From: a virus
Taxonomy: Duplodnaviria; Heunggongvirae; Uroviricota; Caudoviricetes
Virus record (IMG/VR): IMGVR_UViG_2703718816_000013
Length of the DNA stretch: 15,311 nucleotides
Reading direction: 5' to 3' (one strand)
The position numbers were made by a program, and so were the translations under genes. This document shows, piece by piece, positions 1 through 8,700 of the stretch. The notes under the pieces are model-generated. The model worked only from the letters and a program-made list of their open reading frames with translations, was not told the origin of the DNA and searched no databases. Position 1 is the stretch's first letter. Each line of letters begins with the position of its first letter.

Positions 1-525
1 GTCTGGAAATATAGGGGCAAATCCAGTGGATATGAAGGCAAGGATAAAAATCCACAGGGCATTAATATCAGGTATCGCTACGAGATAACGGATGATTTTG
101 GCGTTATCACCTCTTTTACATGGACGCGTTCTCTCACTAACTCACAGACATTTATTGATGTGCAGTCAGCCGATCATACCAGGAAGATTAAGAATCCGGC
201 AGCTTCTGCCAGAACGGATATCAGGGCGAATTACTGGAGTCTGTTAGCGGGGCCTTCATGGCGGGTTAATCAGTACATGAGTTTATATGCGATGGCAGGG
301 ATGGGCGTTGCTAAAGTTAGCGCTGACCTGAAAATTAAGGACAATATTAACAGTAGTGGCGGATTTTCTGAAAGCAACAGCACGAAAAAAACCTCCCTTG
401 CGTGGGCTGCAGGTGCACAGTTTAACCTGAATGAGAGTGTTACACTGGATGTGGCTTACGAAGGTTCCGGCTCTGGCGACTGGCGCACGAGTGGCGTTAC
501 TGCTGGCATTGGCCTGAAATTCTGA
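1..525 (+). CDS. lom: Lom/Ail/PagC/OmpX-family outer-membrane beta-barrel protein, 5'-truncated at the window edge
   Basis: Frame 1 is open from base 1 to the TGA at 523-525; the ORF track starts it at an internal GTG at 160, but the upstream codons translate without stops to ...GINIRYRYEITDDFGVITSFTWT..., which closely resembles the lambda Lom segment GINVKYRYEFTD as I recall it. The C-terminus ends in ...AGIGLKF with a terminal aromatic residue, typical of OM beta-barrels. An intrinsic terminator follows. Confidence 0.8.
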   Translation, partial: VWKYRGKSSGYEGKDKNPQGINIRYRYEITDDFGVITSFTWTRSLTNSQTFIDVQSADHTRKIKNPAASARTDIRANYWSLLAGPSWRVNQYMSLYAMAGMGVAKVSADLKIKDNINSSGGFSESNSTKKTSLAWAAGAQFNLNESVTLDVAYEGSGSGDWRTSGVTAGIGLKF

Positions 526-574: not shown

Positions 575-609
575 TGCCCGTACAGGGCAAAAACCGTAAA
601 TTATGCGTG

Positions 610-625
610 GGTGCCTTTCGGCTGA
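610..625 (+). promoter_or_regulatory. Putative 5' fold-back element of a hok-family mRNA, complementary to 945-961
   Basis: ggtgcctttcggctga (610-625) is near-perfectly complementary to tcagccgatatggcacc (945-961), which lies downstream of the small hok-like ORF. Long-range 5'-3' pairing (fbi) is a hallmark of hok mRNAs. Confidence 0.4.
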
Positions 626-756
626 TGGCTGGAGGGAGAACCTGAAGGCCTGATGTGGAAAGGCCCCGAGTCAACTTAACGTTAACCCGAGGCCCTGACC
701 ATCATACCTTAAGCAAGTAGAAGATTAGCGCCTCTCTGTAAAAGGAGTCAAGCGCT

Positions 757-897
757 ATGTCGCAAAAATCGCTTATCACCGTCACAATTTGTATGACGGT
801 TATCTTCACTATCTGGATGTTGCACGGTTCACTGTGTGAGTTCCGGCTGAATTTGTGGGGAGCGGAGTTTGCGGCGTTCTTACAGTGTAAGCAGTAG
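757..897 (+). CDS. Hok/Gef-family type I toxin (small membrane peptide, 46 aa); not in the supplied ORF track
   Basis: ATG at 757 is preceded by a strong SD (aaaggagt, 741-748). Translation is MSQKSLITVTICMTVIFTIWMLHGSLCEFRLNLWGAEFAAFLQCKQ: an N-terminal hydrophobic helix followed by SLCE-x-R...E-x-AAF, matching the conserved Hok/Gef/RelF C-terminal signature (Hok: ...SLCEIRYRDGHREVAAF...). Stop TAG is at 895-897. Confidence 0.65.
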   Translation: MSQKSLITVTICMTVIFTIWMLHGSLCEFRLNLWGAEFAAFLQCKQ

Positions 898-964: not shown

Positions 965-1248
965 TTGCAGAGTATGTTTTATACAATGCAGGCTGACAGA
1001 GAGAGGTAATATTTATCAATGGTAAATAATAACTACAGAAAATGTTTTGTTTTTTCTGAGTAATACTGGTGTTATTTAGGGGAAGTTTTTGATGCGTATT
1101 GCATCCTTGTGATTTTAATTGTTAATTTTTCTTAACTCATTGATTTTAATATTTTATTTGCCTTGTTATTGTGAGTAGTATCCCTGAAGACATTTGCGTT
1201 CCGAATGTCAACATATTTATAACATGATTTAACATAAGGGTACACATC
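965..1248 (+). promoter_or_regulatory. AT-rich upstream/promoter region of the adhesin gene
   Basis: Visibly AT-rich stretch with a repeated gattttaat motif (about 1111-1119 and 1142-1150) immediately upstream of the autotransporter start. Typical of horizontally acquired, H-NS-type silenced promoters. No specific -35/-10 assigned. Confidence 0.3.
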
Positions 1249-2451
1249 ATGAAAATCATGAAAAAGGCAAGCAAGCTATTGTTGGCTTTAATGCCGGCAT
1301 TAAGCCTGTCGGTATTTTCTGTCGGGGCGTATGCCAGTGGTTATTCCGTTACACCTGAAACTCTGAATAGTAATGCAATAAAGCATGCGGATTTCTTGAA
1401 AGGTATCGGTGTATATAAACAAGATGGATATCCATTAATTAAGCTTGAGAATGGTAAGGTTATTTCTCTTGACGGGAATACACCAACCTCATTAAATATA
1501 GACGCTGTTTCCGGTAAATATTTGAAATATACCTTAATTGATTATGGTAAGGCTGGCCTGACAGATACCGAGTTAGCTGCTCCAAGGGGAGACATCGTCT
1601 CATATTATGATTACGCGAATGAGACAGCTTATTTTGTAAACACAAAAACCAATCAAATTCTGTTTAGTGCAGATGGCGAAGGAGTTGTCTCGACTGTAGG
1701 CGCTGATGGAAAAACATATTCAAGACATATTCCTGAAATCAGTGAATATATTTATGAAATTAAAATGAAGGCTGTGCAATATGGAGCCACTATTGACACT
1801 GGTCTTTCTGCTGCAGATGTAACAGATATTCACGCCCGTCTGTCATCTCTGGGCACCGGTAAAACTCAGGTTGGTGGCGGGGCAACGGCAGGCGGAGAAA
1901 ACGCCACTGCTGTCGGTTACAACGCCATTGCAAACCATACGAACAGTGTTGCTGTAGGGGCTAACTCTCAGACCACTCGCCCCGATGAAGTTAATGTGGG
2001 GAATCGTGTAATTGGTGGGCTTCGTGATGGTGTTCAGGCTGCGGATGCCGCAACCTATGGTCAGTTAGAGCGCTATCGTATTGCAGAAGAGAATGCCCGT
2101 ATTCAGGGTGATGCACAGACACTGAAGTCTGCTAATACCTACACAGATAACCGGGTCAGTACCCTGGAGCGTAGTACTAATCAGCAATTCCGTCAGTTAC
2201 GTGATGAGGTGGAGAAAAACCGTAAACGTGCAGATGCAGGTATTGCAGGAGCAATGGCGATGACTGCCATTCCTGTTGTTGAGGGTAAAACGTACTCCTT
2301 TGGTATGGCTGCAAGTAACTACCGTGATGAGCAGGCTATCGCAGCAGGTATGCACTTCCGCACCACTGAAAATTCTGCTGTACGTTTGAATGCTTCATGG
2401 GATACCCAGAACGGTTCAGGTGTTGCTGCGGGTATGTCTGTCGGCTGGTAA
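1249..2451 (+). CDS. Trimeric autotransporter adhesin (YadA-like C-terminal anchor; Eib/YadA-type), 400 aa
   Basis: N-terminal signal peptide (MKIMKKASKLLLALMPALSLSVFSVGAYA). Glycine-rich head/neck-like repeats (GGGATAGGENATAVGYNAIAN...SVAVGANSQ), a coiled-coil stalk, and a C-terminal membrane anchor ending ...SFGMAASNYRDEQAIAAGMHFRTTENSAVRLNASWDTQNGSGVAAGMSVGW with a terminal W. Size is comparable to prophage-borne E. coli Eib proteins. Confidence 0.85.
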   Translation: MKIMKKASKLLLALMPALSLSVFSVGAYASGYSVTPETLNSNAIKHADFLKGIGVYKQDGYPLIKLENGKVISLDGNTPTSLNIDAVSGKYLKYTLIDYGKAGLTDTELAAPRGDIVSYYDYANETAYFVNTKTNQILFSADGEGVVSTVGADGKTYSRHIPEISEYIYEIKMKAVQYGATIDTGLSAADVTDIHARLSSLGTGKTQVGGGATAGGENATAVGYNAIANHTNSVAVGANSQTTRPDEVNVGNRVIGGLRDGVQAADAATYGQLERYRIAEENARIQGDAQTLKSANTYTDNRVSTLERSTNQQFRQLRDEVEKNRKRADAGIAGAMAMTAIPVVEGKTYSFGMAASNYRDEQAIAAGMHFRTTENSAVRLNASWDTQNGSGVAAGMSVGW

Positions 2452-2562
2452 TTTATTTTTTGCGGAGAACGCCAGCCGTGTTGGTTATCGGAAGCGTTCT
2501 CCGTCATCCTTCTGTCGCTGAAGACACAGCACAGTCACATTGTTCTTTTTTGTGGTGAGAGT

Positions 2563-2940
2563 GTGAGTGAAAAAATTCTCCGGTATATGCAGCGTGTGGT
2601 GAGAAATTCCCGCAACCCTGAATTTATGAATGAAGTTAAAGACGCCTGCTTTAAAAAGCAGGCGTTTTGTTTTGAGGCACCTGATGGCTTTCTGGTGCTG
2701 CGTTCTGTGCTCAGTGCTGATGGTATCCCTTATGTTCTGGTGTTGCTGGGCGTGTGTACGGGGAGTAACAGTGTTGAGCGTTATCTGCCGGAGGTGAAGA
2801 CATTAACCCGTCTGGCTGGCGGACGTTGGGCTGAATTTCATACGGCAAGGCGGGGATTTATCCGGCTGGGAAAACGTCTGGGCTTTGAGCGAATGCCGGA
2901 TGATGAGGATGGCTTCATGGTGTTCAGGATAGCGGTCTGA
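2563..2940 (+). CDS. Hypothetical protein (125 aa from GTG at 2563; alternative ATG start at 2587)
   Basis: Open frame ending at TGA 2938-2940, directly followed by an intrinsic terminator. No recognisable motif by eye and start codon uncertain. Confidence 0.5.
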   Translation: MSEKILRYMQRVVRNSRNPEFMNEVKDACFKKQAFCFEAPDGFLVLRSVLSADGIPYVLVLLGVCTGSNSVERYLPEVKTLTRLAGGRWAEFHTARRGFIRLGKRLGFERMPDDEDGFMVFRIAV

Positions 2941-2993
2941 CTGCCACAGTTTTCATCATCGTGTTTAAACCAACATTGCAATTCACATTCTGA

Positions 2994-3017
2994 CCCTGCT
3001 CCGGCAGGGTTTTTTTA
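2994..3017 (+). terminator. Rho-independent terminator
   Basis: ccctgc (2994-2999) pairs with gcaggg (3004-3009) around a 4-nt loop, followed by a T-run (3010-3016). It sits only a few nt before the RBS of the next gene. Confidence 0.7.
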
Positions 3018-3034
3018 TTATCCAGGGGGCCATT

Positions 3035-3691
3035 ATGGGTGGAAGTAAAGGTGGTGGTGATACCAAAGTAAAACCAACAGCAGCGCAAATAGCACAGGAA
3101 GAAGTGGCTTGGAAAGGGTGGCAGGATTACAAAAATATCCTCCGCCCGGCTGAAGATAACTTCATGGAAAAGGTCGATGACCTGAACAGTGAGCAGCAGT
3201 ACGACAATATTGCTGGCACGACAAATCTGGGGTATCAAAAACAGTTTGGCGAAGCGCGGAAGGAGCTGGCAAGTAATCTCACTCGGTCCGGTGTTGACCC
3301 GTCCAGTGGTCGCTTTAACGCGGTAATGAATGCGAACCAGAGTGATCAGGTAACCGGGCAGATTGACACAACCACACGGGGGCAGGTATCGCAGGCAGAT
3401 AAGTATGTTGCCGGGCTACAGGATGTTGCTGCTCTCGGTTCTGGTCAGAAGGCGGATGCGTTACAGAGTTTTAACTCTCTGGCAGACAGCAGTCTGGCAA
3501 AAGCTAAATCGGATGCACAGGCGGCGTTTACGAAACAGCAGGGGCGAGCCTCTCTTGTTGGCGCTGGTCTGGGTGCGGCAGGTGCATATGCGATGCATAA
3601 GGCTGGCGGTAGCGGAGGAAGTGGCGGTGCTAAAACACCTGGCACTGGCGCTAATGCCATTCAGCATCAGGCTCAGAACTGGAGACTGTGA
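3035..3691 (+). CDS. Hypothetical Gly/Ala/Gln-rich protein (218 aa), first gene of a 4-gene operon
   Basis: ATG 3035 with RBS aggggg (3024-3029). No signal peptide (MGGSKGGGDTK...). C-terminal Gly/Ala-rich tract (GAGLGAAGAYAMHKAGGSGGSGG). Stop TGA at 3689-3691 lies 2 nt before the next start. Confidence 0.7.
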   Translation: MGGSKGGGDTKVKPTAAQIAQEEVAWKGWQDYKNILRPAEDNFMEKVDDLNSEQQYDNIAGTTNLGYQKQFGEARKELASNLTRSGVDPSSGRFNAVMNANQSDQVTGQIDTTTRGQVSQADKYVAGLQDVAALGSGQKADALQSFNSLADSSLAKAKSDAQAAFTKQQGRASLVGAGLGAAGAYAMHKAGGSGGSGGAKTPGTGANAIQHQAQNWRL

Positions 3692-4149: not shown

Positions 4150-4422
4150 ATGGGATACGGTTTACTGGATATTGCAAATCAGTCGCGGCGTGAGGCATTA
4201 CAGGGAATAAGTGACGCAGACAGACGACGTACAGAGATTGAGGCATCAAATAAACAACTGGCTGCTCAACAGAAAGCTCAGAAAAAACAGAATATCGGTA
4301 CGGGCATTGGTACGGGGGCCACTATCGGGGCGACTGTTGGTTCAGCAGTACCGGTAGTGGGGACAGCCGTCGGCGCTGTTGCTGGTGCAGTAATTGGCGG
4401 CATTGCAGGCGCTTTGTTTTAA
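4150..4422 (+). CDS. Small protein with C-terminal glycine-zipper hydrophobic segment (90 aa); probable membrane-anchored peptide
   Basis: RBS aaggggg precedes ATG 4150. Charged, coiled N-terminal half, then GTGIGTGATIGATVGSAVPVVGTAVGAVAGAVIGGIAGALF with GxxxG/AxxxG spacing. Confidence 0.7.
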   Translation: MGYGLLDIANQSRREALQGISDADRRRTEIEASNKQLAAQQKAQKKQNIGTGIGTGATIGATVGSAVPVVGTAVGAVAGAVIGGIAGALF

Positions 4423-5698: not shown

Positions 5699-5731
5699 TT
5701 CACGATATTCCATTAATACCATTTCCTGATG

Positions 5732-5756
5732 CCCGGCCATTGTGCCGGGTTTTTTT
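5732..5756 (+). terminator. Rho-independent terminator between the 4-gene operon and the giant gene
   Basis: cccggc (5732-5737) pairs with gccggg (5744-5749), a perfect 6-bp GC stem with a 6-nt loop, followed by a T-run (5750-5756). It lies inside the N-terminal extension of the ORF-track call (5729 start), arguing for a downstream true start. Confidence 0.75.
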
Positions 5757-5767
5757 ATGGAGTCTGT

Positions 5768-8700
5768 ATGGCCTATTCAGAGGAACAGCGTCCTGAGGCG
5801 CAACTCGGTAACCAGAATCGTAACAGCCTGAACATTCAGCAACCCGGCGAAACTGACAGCTATGAAGCATTTTTCTCTGATCCGAATCGCTGGAAGGATA
5901 ACAGTACGTCGTTCAGCCTGGGCGATGTATTGCCAACAATGGGTAAAGGTTTCGCCCAGTCCGTCCGGGGAACAGGGGAAATGGCCCGTGGACTCGGTGA
6001 TGCGATGATTCAGAGCCCGGTAAAAACAGGGGCGCGTATTTTAAATGAGTTCAGCCGTATGGGGCTGCCGGGTGTCGCAACTGTGCAGGATATTTTTGCC
6101 GGTGGCAGCAGGGGGGCTGATGAGGTCATCGATACCCTGCCTGATGGCAAAAACGCGGTTACTGATACTGTCGGTAAAGGTCTGAAGGCAACCGGTAAGG
6201 CTGTCAGTGATGGTGCTGAAGCCACTGATGAATGGCTGACCGGTAAGATGTCGCCGGGTGCAGTTCGTGCGCTGAATACGCCGATGACCGAAGGCTATGA
6301 TGATTCTGCGGTCTGGGTGGCGAAGGGTGTAAACCTGATTGGTGCGCTTGTACCTGATATGGTTGTTGGCGGTGTGGCTAAAAAGGTGGGTGATGTCACA
6401 CTGCGAAAAATGCTGACCGCCGGGCTGGAGAAAAAATACATCGCGGCAGGGATGCAGCCGGAAAGAGCCACGGCACTGGCAGCAGAAGCTGTCGATAAAA
6501 AAATGCCGGATTTATTCCAGGCGGGCCTGATCACCCATTCCACAGCCAGTGCACAGGGGCAGAGTGCAATGGCGGCAGCAGATGCTGTTCTTAATGCGGA
6601 TTACTCTGAGCTGGCGCAGTCACCGAAATTTCAGCAGACGTTTTTGTCCATTGACGCCGACCCGCAGCACGCACAGCTTACTGATCGCCAGAAAATGGAT
6701 CTGGCAAAAGAGCGTGTTGCCGATGAGGTGCGCGCGCAGCTGGCAACCGATCCTGAATTGCTGGCTGTGAATGCCATGGCGGCAAAACTGGGTGACGCAC
6801 AACTGTTTAATCTGGTGACACGAGGCACAGCGAAGACCGTTAAAAGCGGCATTGTCAGAAATGCCACGGAACAGGGGGCGATTAATGCGGCGCAGGGCGG
6901 CTATTCACGCTATCAGGAAAACACGGCATTGCGTGAGACCGCCGGAATGGATGTGTCACCGTGGGAGGGCGTGGCTGACGCAACGATCGAAGGTGCAGCC
7001 TTTGGTGCTGCGATGGGGGCTCCATCCGGTGCGGTTGCCGGATATCGTGGCAGACGTCAGGCCGCAGAAGAAACCGCCATGCGTGATGCTGAAACCGTGC
7101 AGCAGGACGACGCAGCCCCGCAACCAGAATCTGTTGATCCGGTGGCGCAGCAGCGTGAATCCATGCAGGGCATGAATCGCGAGCAGCTTCTGGAGCAGTA
7201 TGCTGATGCGGATATGGCAACAGAGGGTGACGCATCCGCAGCTCATCGCCGGGAAGCTGCCAGCCAGTTGTTGAATGAACTGGACGAACAGGCGAAGCGA
7301 CAGGCTGTGATGAATGAGCTGAAGGCGAAGCCGCGTTCTGAACTGCTTGAGGAATACCGCAGACTCAGCCAGAAAGAGGGGCGCACCGAGACTGAAGAAC
7401 AACAGTTTCAGGCAATACGAGAAGTCATTCGCCCACAACAGGAAGTGACGCCGGAAGCACAGTCACAGCCTGAAAATGCGGAGGATGGTAACGGGAGCAT
7501 TTACCCGACGGTGCGGTTCCGGGACCCGAATGAAGTCCGCATTGAAATTAACGGGAATGGTGCGTCCAGACCAGCGGAACGCATTGAAAAGGTGCGCCCG
7601 GACAACCGTTATTTCACGGATGAGAAAAGCGCCATGGGGAGTGATGTTTTCCGTAATGCCGCCGCCACCGGCCTGAAACCGTCCGTAGTGAAGAAAGGCG
7701 AGAATCAGTATGCCGTTGAAATGGATAATCCTGCGTTCTCTGAAGATGTGGCAACGGAAACCATTAACACCCTGGCTGACGGAGAGCGTATTGCTGATGC
7801 TGACCCGATGGAGCAGCCCGCGTTCATGCGTGACCCGCGATTCCGTGGTTTCACGGGGGATGATACGGAGGTACAGGCCCGCCTTGCCCGTGGCAATGCG
7901 CCGACGGCGGAGGAGCTTGTACGTTCACAGATGGCTGAAGGTGATGCCGGTCCGACAGCACAGGAGTTAACTGAGCGTCCACGCCTGCCCGCTCCCGGCG
8001 ATATTCATCCCGGACAGGGATATCCGTTACCGGGAGAGGTGGCGCGTACGCCGGATGAGAATCAGGCCGGACGTGGTGGTCGTTTTACCACAACCGGTGA
8101 GGTTAAGGGCCAGAGTTTCCAGAAAGGACAAGCTCCGGCACCGGAAAACGCCGCTGGTCGCCAGGGGGAAACACTCGAGGGTGAAATGGTTCGTCGTGGT
8201 CTGCCGTCACCGGATGCGCAGAACGCGACAGCACCGGTACGTGAAGGGCTACCGGCTCCTGACATTGCGCGTAATGTTCGTATGCCTCAGCCTGAATCAC
8301 TTCCCCGCACTGTACGGGACTCACTGCCTGAGCTTGCACAGCAGGCAGAAGTACGCCGACAGGCCGGAGGAAATCGTGACATCCCGCAGCCTGAGACAAT
8401 CGCACCTGAATCTGAAACAACTGTCTCTACTGACAGGGAAGCTACCGTGCGCGGAGGTGAAGTCAGGGGCAAAAAAATTGAAGACTTTGGCGAGGAAATT
8501 AAAGGGGCAGCCAAACACCGTTATGCACAGCTTGCTGAAACACTGGGTAAAACGCTGGAAGACAGGGATTATGCCACGCAGCCGCTGAGCAAACTGTTCC
8601 CGAAACCGGACTACGCAAAACTGGCGAACGAAGGTGCCGATGCTGACACTCTGGCAATGATAGCGCTGTATCGTAGCGATATTCCGGCGAAGACGAAACA

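Follow-up and report, generated by a model that had tools for sequence, protein, structure and literature searches.

A predicted trimeric autotransporter adhesin of the Saa family in an accessory cassette of Stx1c-converting prophages of Escherichia coli

We analysed a stretch of 15,311 nucleotides from a Caudoviricetes record (IMG/VR IMGVR_UViG_2703718816_000013), below called the window. At positions 1249-2451 of its plus strand there is an intact open reading frame (ORF) of 400 codons plus stop. Very probably this gene encodes a trimeric autotransporter adhesin of the Saa family and is part of a 1.58-kb moron among the late/tail genes of a 933W-like prophage that converts its host to production of the Shiga toxin Stx1c. 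The window matches, with 100% identity, the chromosome of E. coli ST866 (NZ_CP077646.1), which was isolated from a human in an outbreak of food poisoning in China. The same prophage, which is integrated at ynfG, carries the genes Q, stxA1c and stxB1c about 25 kb upstream. Thus the window is part of an Stx1c-converting prophage.

By its predicted architecture the protein is a trimeric autotransporter. The set of modules typical of this class is complete in the sequence: signal peptide, head, neck, coiled-coil stalk and YadA-type anchor (Table 1). This agrees with the preliminary description, in which a 400-aa trimeric autotransporter with a signal peptide, head repeats, a stalk and a YadA-type anchor ending in tryptophan was proposed from the letters of the window alone. 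The N-terminus, MKIMKKASK-LLLALMPALSLSVFSV-GAYA followed by SG, shows on inspection the n/h/c layout typical of Sec signal peptides: the n-region is rich in K, the hydrophobic core spans 16 residues (mean Kyte-Doolittle hydropathy of the h-region 2.2), and an AYA/S motif is present. Profile hidden Markov models of Pfam detect the YadA_head domain PF05658 at residues 214-240 (E 6.8e-6, 26.7 bits, cutoff 25) and the YadA_anchor domain PF03895 at residues 345-400 (E 1.2e-11, 45 bits, cutoff 22.7). The anchors of Hia and YadA are also matched by phmmer, and those of Hia, AtaA and YadA by fold (Foldseek), in both cases with E 1e-6 to 1e-4. The head aligns with the heads of EibD, YadA, BoaA and SadA. 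The AlphaFold2 (AF2) monomer contains helices at residues 270-289 and 301-339 and a four-strand beta unit at 349-399, and the chain ends in GW, the last residue being the aromatic W. Residues 251-274, GNRVIGGLRDGVQAADAATYGQLE, align with the necks of EibD and EibE, are invariant among alleles and conserved in Saa; we take them to be the neck from the general appearance of this motif in trimeric autotransporters.

In the PHROGs collection of phage protein families, the protein matches phrog_10464, a family without assigned function, with E 1.6e-164. NCBIfam yielded only matches far below threshold, to the exception models of YadA, BimA and Ata. Among 1.84 billion cluster representatives, the N-terminal domain found only its own 50% cluster and a fragment. 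A eukaryotic BED-finger repeat protein that matched the same domain in this search was judged spurious. Proteins labelled as tail, receptor-binding or adhesin proteins in several unrelated phages (of Aeromonas, Pantoea, Yersinia, Salmonella and Erwinia) have C-termini 34-43% identical to the stalk and anchor.

Within the trimeric autotransporters, the alignments place the protein in the Saa family and not among the Eib proteins, since Saa is collinear with it along the full length, whereas the similarity to EibE is limited to the head and neck. The alignment with Saa covers residues 18-400 (383 aa, 52% identity, E 2e-137) and spans an N-terminal domain of about 170 aa, the three-turn head, the neck, one 37-aa stalk repeat and the anchor. 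In a search of 5.8 billion proteins Saa was the nearest named relative, with 48-52% identity across 96% of the length; the close copies (82-96% identity) carry only the labels 'YadA-like family protein' or 'hemagglutinin'. Saa itself is the autoagglutinating adhesin of E. coli strains that produce Shiga toxin (STEC), encoded on pO113-type megaplasmids (Paton et al. 2001, via PMC3714128 and PMC3491183). Its variants of 386, 423, 460 and 516 aa contain one, two, three and more copies of the stalk repeat. The present stalk has a single ARIEGDAQTLKSANTYTNKQV... repeat, the same count as in the 386-aa variants.

The two proteins have in common the order of domains throughout, that is, the signal peptide, the family-specific N-terminal domain, the short YadA-type head, the neck and the stalk of 37-aa repeats, followed by an anchor that is about 85% identical. 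Both genes have AT-rich leaders and occur in STEC that are negative for the enterocyte effacement locus (LEE). However, saa is plasmid-borne, whereas the present gene is chromosomal and lies on a prophage, its product has only one stalk repeat, and the N-terminal tip is unrelated to that of Saa and hypervariable. The gene is not saa itself. The similarity at the DNA level (73% identity) is confined to the last 366 nt (2086-2451), all copies are chromosomal, and the published saa primers (saa1) for the polymerase chain reaction (PCR) do not match within three mismatches. NCBI does not name the gene Saa; the RefSeq product name is 'YadA-like family protein'.

The preliminary description had likened the protein to the Eib proteins, prophage-encoded immunoglobulin-binding proteins conferring serum resistance, and this likeness does not hold over most of the chain. 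Like the Eib and Cla proteins (EibA, C, D, E, F, G; ClaA, ClaB), which are trimeric autotransporters from lambdoid or 933W-like prophages of E. coli, the present protein has a prophage location and a head and neck of the YadA type. In these two modules it aligns with EibD and EibE, and a short YTD-containing stretch of the stalk is common with EibD. Serum resistance is frequent in trimeric autotransporters, including, in the accessible text of PMC13534694, the Cla proteins that do not bind immunoglobulins. However, the EibE alignment extends over only 107 aa of generic head and neck (40% identity, E 6e-14), to be compared with 52% over 383 aa for Saa, its stalk and anchor aligning weakly (27-28% identity), and EibD matches in the head only. 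The Eib and Cla proteins have an N-terminal domain, stalk and anchor of their own and are longer (about 390-510 aa), with a saddle and an immunoglobulin-binding stalk. Nothing similar to the Eib stalk, which bears the immunoglobulin-binding sites, was found; the stalk here is about 65 aa, and the anchor ends as in Saa (...MSVGW), not as in the Eib proteins (...VNFEF). The position on the phage also differs from that of the Eib-lineage genes (see below). An Eib-type immunoglobulin-binding function is thus very unlikely, and the alignment to Saa called for in the preliminary description settles the question of family.

The gene, its leader and a 3' hairpin make up a discrete cassette. The flanking segments 24-970 and 2554-3200 abut at one point in the Stx2 prophage of O157:H7 strain EC4115, with 97-99% identity; there, hok is directly followed by the 133-aa phage gene that is found downstream of the cassette in the window. 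One Stx1c prophage, that of O22:H8 strain 154, has this empty site too. The GC content of the cassette is 42.5%, compared to 49-53% in the flanks and 51.8% in the whole window. The cassette is thus present or absent at a precise point in collinear phages and has an atypical composition, as is characteristic of morons, and the proposal that the gene is prophage-borne cargo holds. The left limit of 965 given to the feature in the preliminary description nearly coincides with the true left edge of the cassette at 971. Judged by its anatomy, the element is a phage moron, or lysogenic-conversion cassette, whose own expression in the lysogen is assumed. No target-site duplications or terminal inverted repeats were seen at the cassette junctions, and a transposon-like origin of the cassette is therefore unsupported.

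The region upstream of the gene is markedly AT-rich, as had been noted: the GC content of 965-1248 is 29.9%. Close alleles conserve the leader at 93-97% and the KY176 allele at 76%; it is AT-rich in all of them. It contains no convincing small ORF and no Rfam match (the window was searched at the gathering threshold and at E<=1). A weak candidate promoter, TTGCGT-18-TATAAC, was picked by hand at 1194-1223. The nonamer GATTTTAAT occurs twice, at 1111 and 1142, 31 nt apart. This repeat had been singled out from the sequence, but it is no more than is expected by chance, since some exact 9-mer repeat arises in 37% of shuffles of the AT-rich stretch (a 10-mer repeat in 13%). As a candidate operator-like element it was rejected: such repeats arise in shuffles, and other alleles do not keep the motif.

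Translation is likely to start at ATG 1249, which keeps an 8-nt spacing from the Shine-Dalgarno sequence AAGGG at 1236-1240. The start codon lies in a tandem duplication (Table 1) specific to the ST866/ST865 allele, other alleles having a single copy, so the N-terminus in ST866 gains the residues MKI. RefSeq sets the start at the second ATG (1258). This choice is explained by the duplication, while the Shine-Dalgarno spacing favours 1249. Just past the stop codon there is a stable hairpin with an 11-bp stem (fold of 2449-2565, -36.1 kcal/mol overall, z = -2.7), which is not a canonical intrinsic terminator.

The cassette lies among late and tail genes on the same strand, and the product might be taken for a virion component of the tail-fibre or receptor-binding kind; in several phages, proteins with a YadA-like C-terminus are annotated in this way. 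Indeed, its C-terminal third matches phrog_17426 and phrog_26246 (tail/adhesin/tail protein) with E 1e-20 to 1e-16, and the tblastn matches include phage proteins annotated as tail or receptor-binding. However, a Sec signal peptide together with a complete membrane anchor argues against a role in the virion. The gene is dispensable, as most collinear 933W-like phages have a clean empty site. Furthermore, it has a foreign composition and a leader of its own, and Saa, to which it is related over the full length, is a bacterial adhesin encoded on a plasmid. We consider a virion protein extremely improbable.

The gene was found in 20 of 5426 complete E. coli genomes, in up to three copies each, and all 29 places where it was found are chromosomal. 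Among the 14 complete genomes with stx1c, 13 have the cassette on the same strand as this gene and 23-27 kb downstream of it, hence on the Stx1c prophage; the fourteenth, O22:H8 strain 154, has the empty site. The cassette is also present on the Stx2b prophage of strain 04-00955, and on prophages of the same type lacking stx in JNEC-KY176 and 2015C-3121.

Five alleles, those of the window and of the stretches L002, L005, L006 and L009, were compared codon by codon. Codons 275-400 (the last 378 nt, 2071-2448) are identical in all five. In the head and neck (codons 205-274) the synonymous divergence dS does not exceed 0.04. In the N-terminal core (codons 89-204) dS is 0.5-1.3, and the ratio of nonsynonymous to synonymous divergence, dN/dS, is 0.09-0.16; this core is under purifying selection. 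In the mature tip (codons 30-88) dS is 1.0-1.7 between allele groups, dN 0.3-1.2 and dN/dS 0.3-1.0, with 0.67-0.99 observed between otherwise near-identical alleles. The tip cannot be aligned at the DNA level between allele groups. At least five types of tip cassette occur among the alleles, and the tips recombine independently of the core. All 20 complete genomes have an uninterrupted ORF, and the tip keeps its reading frame across cassette types.

Since the core is conserved and the tip is variable, the gene is, judging from these substitution patterns, functional, with its exposed end under diversifying or relaxed selection. Such a pattern would be expected for the distal surface of an adhesin that meets receptors, antibodies or phages. 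The identity of the 3' half at dS above 1 in the 5' parts suggests that this half and the downstream phage genes were recently homogenised by recombination. The invariant 3' half and the conserved phage flanks would also permit exchange by homologous recombination.

Table 1. Features of the cassette, the encoded protein and the adjacent genes (positions in the window)
Feature	Position	Strand	Basis
Accessory cassette (moron), 1583 bp: AT-rich leader, adhesin gene, 3' hairpin	971-2553	+	BLASTN
AT-rich leader, 29.5% GC, presumed promoter/regulatory region	971-1248	+	Composition
Tandem duplication of 9 bp, ATCATGAAA x2, at the start codon	1246-1263	+	
Predicted Saa-family trimeric autotransporter gene, 400 aa plus stop	1249-2451	+	ORF, Pfam, Saa alignment
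Sec signal peptide, aa 1-29, predicted cleavage AYA/SG	1249-1335	+	Inspection, hydropathy; aligns with the Saa signal peptide
Hypervariable mature N-terminal tip, aa 30-88	1336-1512	+	Allele comparison
Saa-family N-terminal domain, conserved core, aa 89-204	1513-1860	+	
Short left-handed beta-roll head, YadA-head repeats, aa 205-250	1861-1998	+	PF05658
Presumed neck, aa 251-274	1999-2070	+	EibD/EibE neck alignment; conservation in alleles and Saa
Coiled-coil stalk, aa 275-340	2071-2268	+	AF2 helices
Single copy of the Saa 37-aa repeat, aa 283-313	2095-2187	+	Saa alignment
YadA-type membrane anchor, aa 341-400, ends in W	2269-2448	+	PF03895, phmmer, Foldseek
Stable hairpin just past the stop codon, U-run before rather than after	2462-2504	+	RNA fold
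lom (Ail/Lom), 3' part	1-525	+	Ail/Lom E 3.7e-32; terminator-like site at 549-567
hok/sok-type toxin-antitoxin locus, hok coding sequence 757-897	609-897	+	RefSeq Hok/Gef; phrog_251 E 2.8e-24
Conserved phage gene phrog_610, first ~8 codons replaced by the cassette right end	2563-2940	+	

In the RefSeq annotation of ST866 this region has the late and tail genes of a short-tailed prophage of the 933W type, with genes for the terminase, the portal, an N4-gp56-type capsid, tail fibres, Ail/Lom and Hok/Gef; these are followed by the 'YadA-like family protein', five small conserved phage genes and a 2807-aa LPD5-domain protein. A lom-like gene had been named as the immediate neighbour in the preliminary description. 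It is indeed present upstream, but the hok/sok locus stands between it and the adhesin gene. The sok-like match at 609-770 (33.9 bits) is below the Rfam gathering score. This hok is found conserved in some 1670 E. coli genomes. On the other side of the cassette, the homologue of the phrog_610 gene in EC4115 starts with MAPVSGERMNDKIL..., whereas in the window the frame starts at GTG 2563 (VSEKIL...) or ATG 2587.

The cassette resembles the lom and bor morons, which also encode dispensable outer-membrane or surface proteins of atypical composition in the late region of temperate phages and are thought to serve the lysogen; here it lies about 450 bp downstream of lom. However, Lom is a monomeric eight-strand barrel and Bor is a lipoprotein, whereas the present protein is predicted to be a trimer secreted by the type Vc pathway.

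Eib-lineage genes directly follow the tail-fibre genes, upstream of lom, as in PhiR12_3 and the Stx1c prophage of JNEC-KY202. The Saa-like cassette follows lom-hok; this is not the Eib slot, which has an ORF-156-like gene next. Thus this phage family has two independent slots for trimeric autotransporters, and KY202 fills both of them. The protein in the Eib slot of JNEC-KY202 (L005, 20616-21737) is 74% identical to EibE over the C-terminal 155 aa. The corresponding gene of PhiR12_3 is at 5245-6738 of L011, and ST866 has a Gp38-like gene in this slot. The KY202 prophage has IS3 in place of lom, and its tail-tip fibre gene is truncated.

Further downstream in the window, at 4150-4422, there is a 90-aa ORF whose C-terminus resembles a glycine zipper or a class II bacteriocin (weak Pfam matches). 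It partially matches the LeoB model of PADLOC (E 1.2e-8), is conserved in 933W-like phages (phrog_594), and has a homologue labelled 'bacteriocin' in JNEC-KY174. The ORF of 2807 aa at 5729-14152 encodes the giant conserved protein of 933W-like phages, annotated as LPD5 domain-containing here and as LPD38 in another strain. Directly after it, at 14241-15311 on the minus strand and beyond (29342-32342 of L001), there are an integrase-core gene of an insertion sequence (IS) and an IS630 transposase gene. IS elements have thus inserted into the right part of this prophage. The deposited chromosome NZ_CP077646.1 is linearised inside the prophage, the terminase gene spanning the record origin, and the prophage therefore looks split in this record. 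The annotation of phiSTEC1589-Stx1c (PQ600364.1) looks shifted or mis-assigned: the adhesin is named 'terminase large subunit', and lom is named 'virulence determinant Bor'.

Proteins of this kind have recently been given a name. Kotaka et al. (Nat Commun, August 2026; PMC13534694), who sequenced the JNEC-KY strains, describe in the accessible text 'Yal' proteins as adhesin-like proteins of unknown function from LEE-negative STEC of this collection. These were EibG-like BLAST matches that grouped with Saa and not with Eib. According to the same text, the Saa and Yal proteins have neither the saddle nor the N-terminal domain of the Eib proteins, which argues further against an Eib, and the Yal trimer is predicted to be a lollipop without a saddle; YalA is on a plasmid or chromosome in KY178 and KY180. 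The genomes of JNEC-KY202, 174, 171 and 176 hold copies 88-97% identical to the present gene. It is therefore probably one of the Yal genes, and it would fall in one of the named Yal clades. The generic annotation and, probably, the Yal name are thus already known. The accessible text of the Yal paper does not mention location on Stx phages, cassette boundaries or the mosaic structure of alleles, and our literature searches found no description of the gene on Stx1c or Stx2b phages, of the cassette limits or of the allele mosaic. What is new here is the context: toxin-converting phages bear the gene as a discrete cassette, and its tip is hypervariable.

Current knowledge of type Vc secretion and of Saa suggests a likely course of events. 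By its Sec signal peptide the protein would be brought to the periplasm. With the help of the beta-barrel assembly machinery (BAM), three C-terminal four-strand units would then make up a 12-strand barrel in the outer membrane. The passengers would thread out and fold as a short lollipop with a stalk, a neck and a head made of a three-turn beta-roll. On top of the head there would be the N-terminal domain specific to the Saa family, its distal 60 residues varying by allele. In the lysogen the most likely role is adherence and/or cell-cell aggregation, as for Saa, and perhaps complement resistance, as in many such proteins. The AT-rich leader probably holds the gene's own promoter, possibly one repressed by H-NS; silencing of such a leader by H-NS is plausible. 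On induction, late transcription antiterminated by Q could read through the gene. An LEE-negative STEC would gain the adhesin together with the toxin.

A surface protein could instead serve mainly the prophage, by masking receptors or changing the envelope so that other phages are excluded, or by aggregating lysogens. Short-tailed Stx phages use BamA. The circumstantial evidence is that the neighbouring cargo (lom, hok/sok) and the cargo-rich zone fit genes benefiting the prophage, and a tip that is exposed and hypervariable would be in keeping with an arms race against phages or antibodies. However, the protein matches no PADLOC defence model, and we know of no precedent for a trimeric autotransporter in phage exclusion. 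Moreover, if related phages were strongly excluded, one would not expect genomes to hold two or three copies on different prophages, as some do. A benefit mainly to the prophage seems very improbable to us.

Several points weigh against an expressed, Saa-like adhesin that travels with Stx1c. A consensus scan of the leader for sigma-70 sites found none except one overlapping the start codon, and a consensus scan of the cassette found no canonical terminator; autonomous expression in the lysogen is therefore assumed. The full-chain AF2 monomer has low confidence (pLDDT 60). At 52% identity and with a tip unlike that of Saa, the protein may not share the function of Saa. The association of the cassette with stx1c (Fisher p ~2e-33) is a raw value, which counts strains and phages as if they were unrelated by ancestry. 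These scan results would also fit a passenger gene that is silent or in decay and at present without function. The leader could be fully silenced by H-NS, and many database entries are partial, although mostly from contig ends. However, no copy in the complete genomes is disrupted, dN/dS in the core is about 0.1 at dS up to 1.3, and the tip stays in frame in all its forms, which makes a gene without function highly improbable. A working member of the Saa family, expressed from the prophage, remains the preferred interpretation.

LEE-negative STEC have no intimin, and their attachment is only partly understood. Saa is among the few adhesins linked to these strains and is screened by PCR. The present observations indicate that a paralogue of Saa, missed by the saa primers, rides on the toxin phage itself. 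It is conceivable, though we hold it as a speculation and rather doubtful, that the cassette is the missing colonisation factor of LEE-negative STEC with Stx1c or Stx2b (O128:H2, O146:H21 and relatives), one transduction event delivering both toxin and adhesin. The tip cassettes might then set the host or tissue tropism or provide antigenic escape, and the identical 3' half might serve as a recombination handle for the exchange of tips. If the protein is a working adhesin, toxin and adhesin would be co-transferred by one phage, and the hypervariable tip would be of use as a marker for typing and would be a candidate for what determines host range or immune escape.

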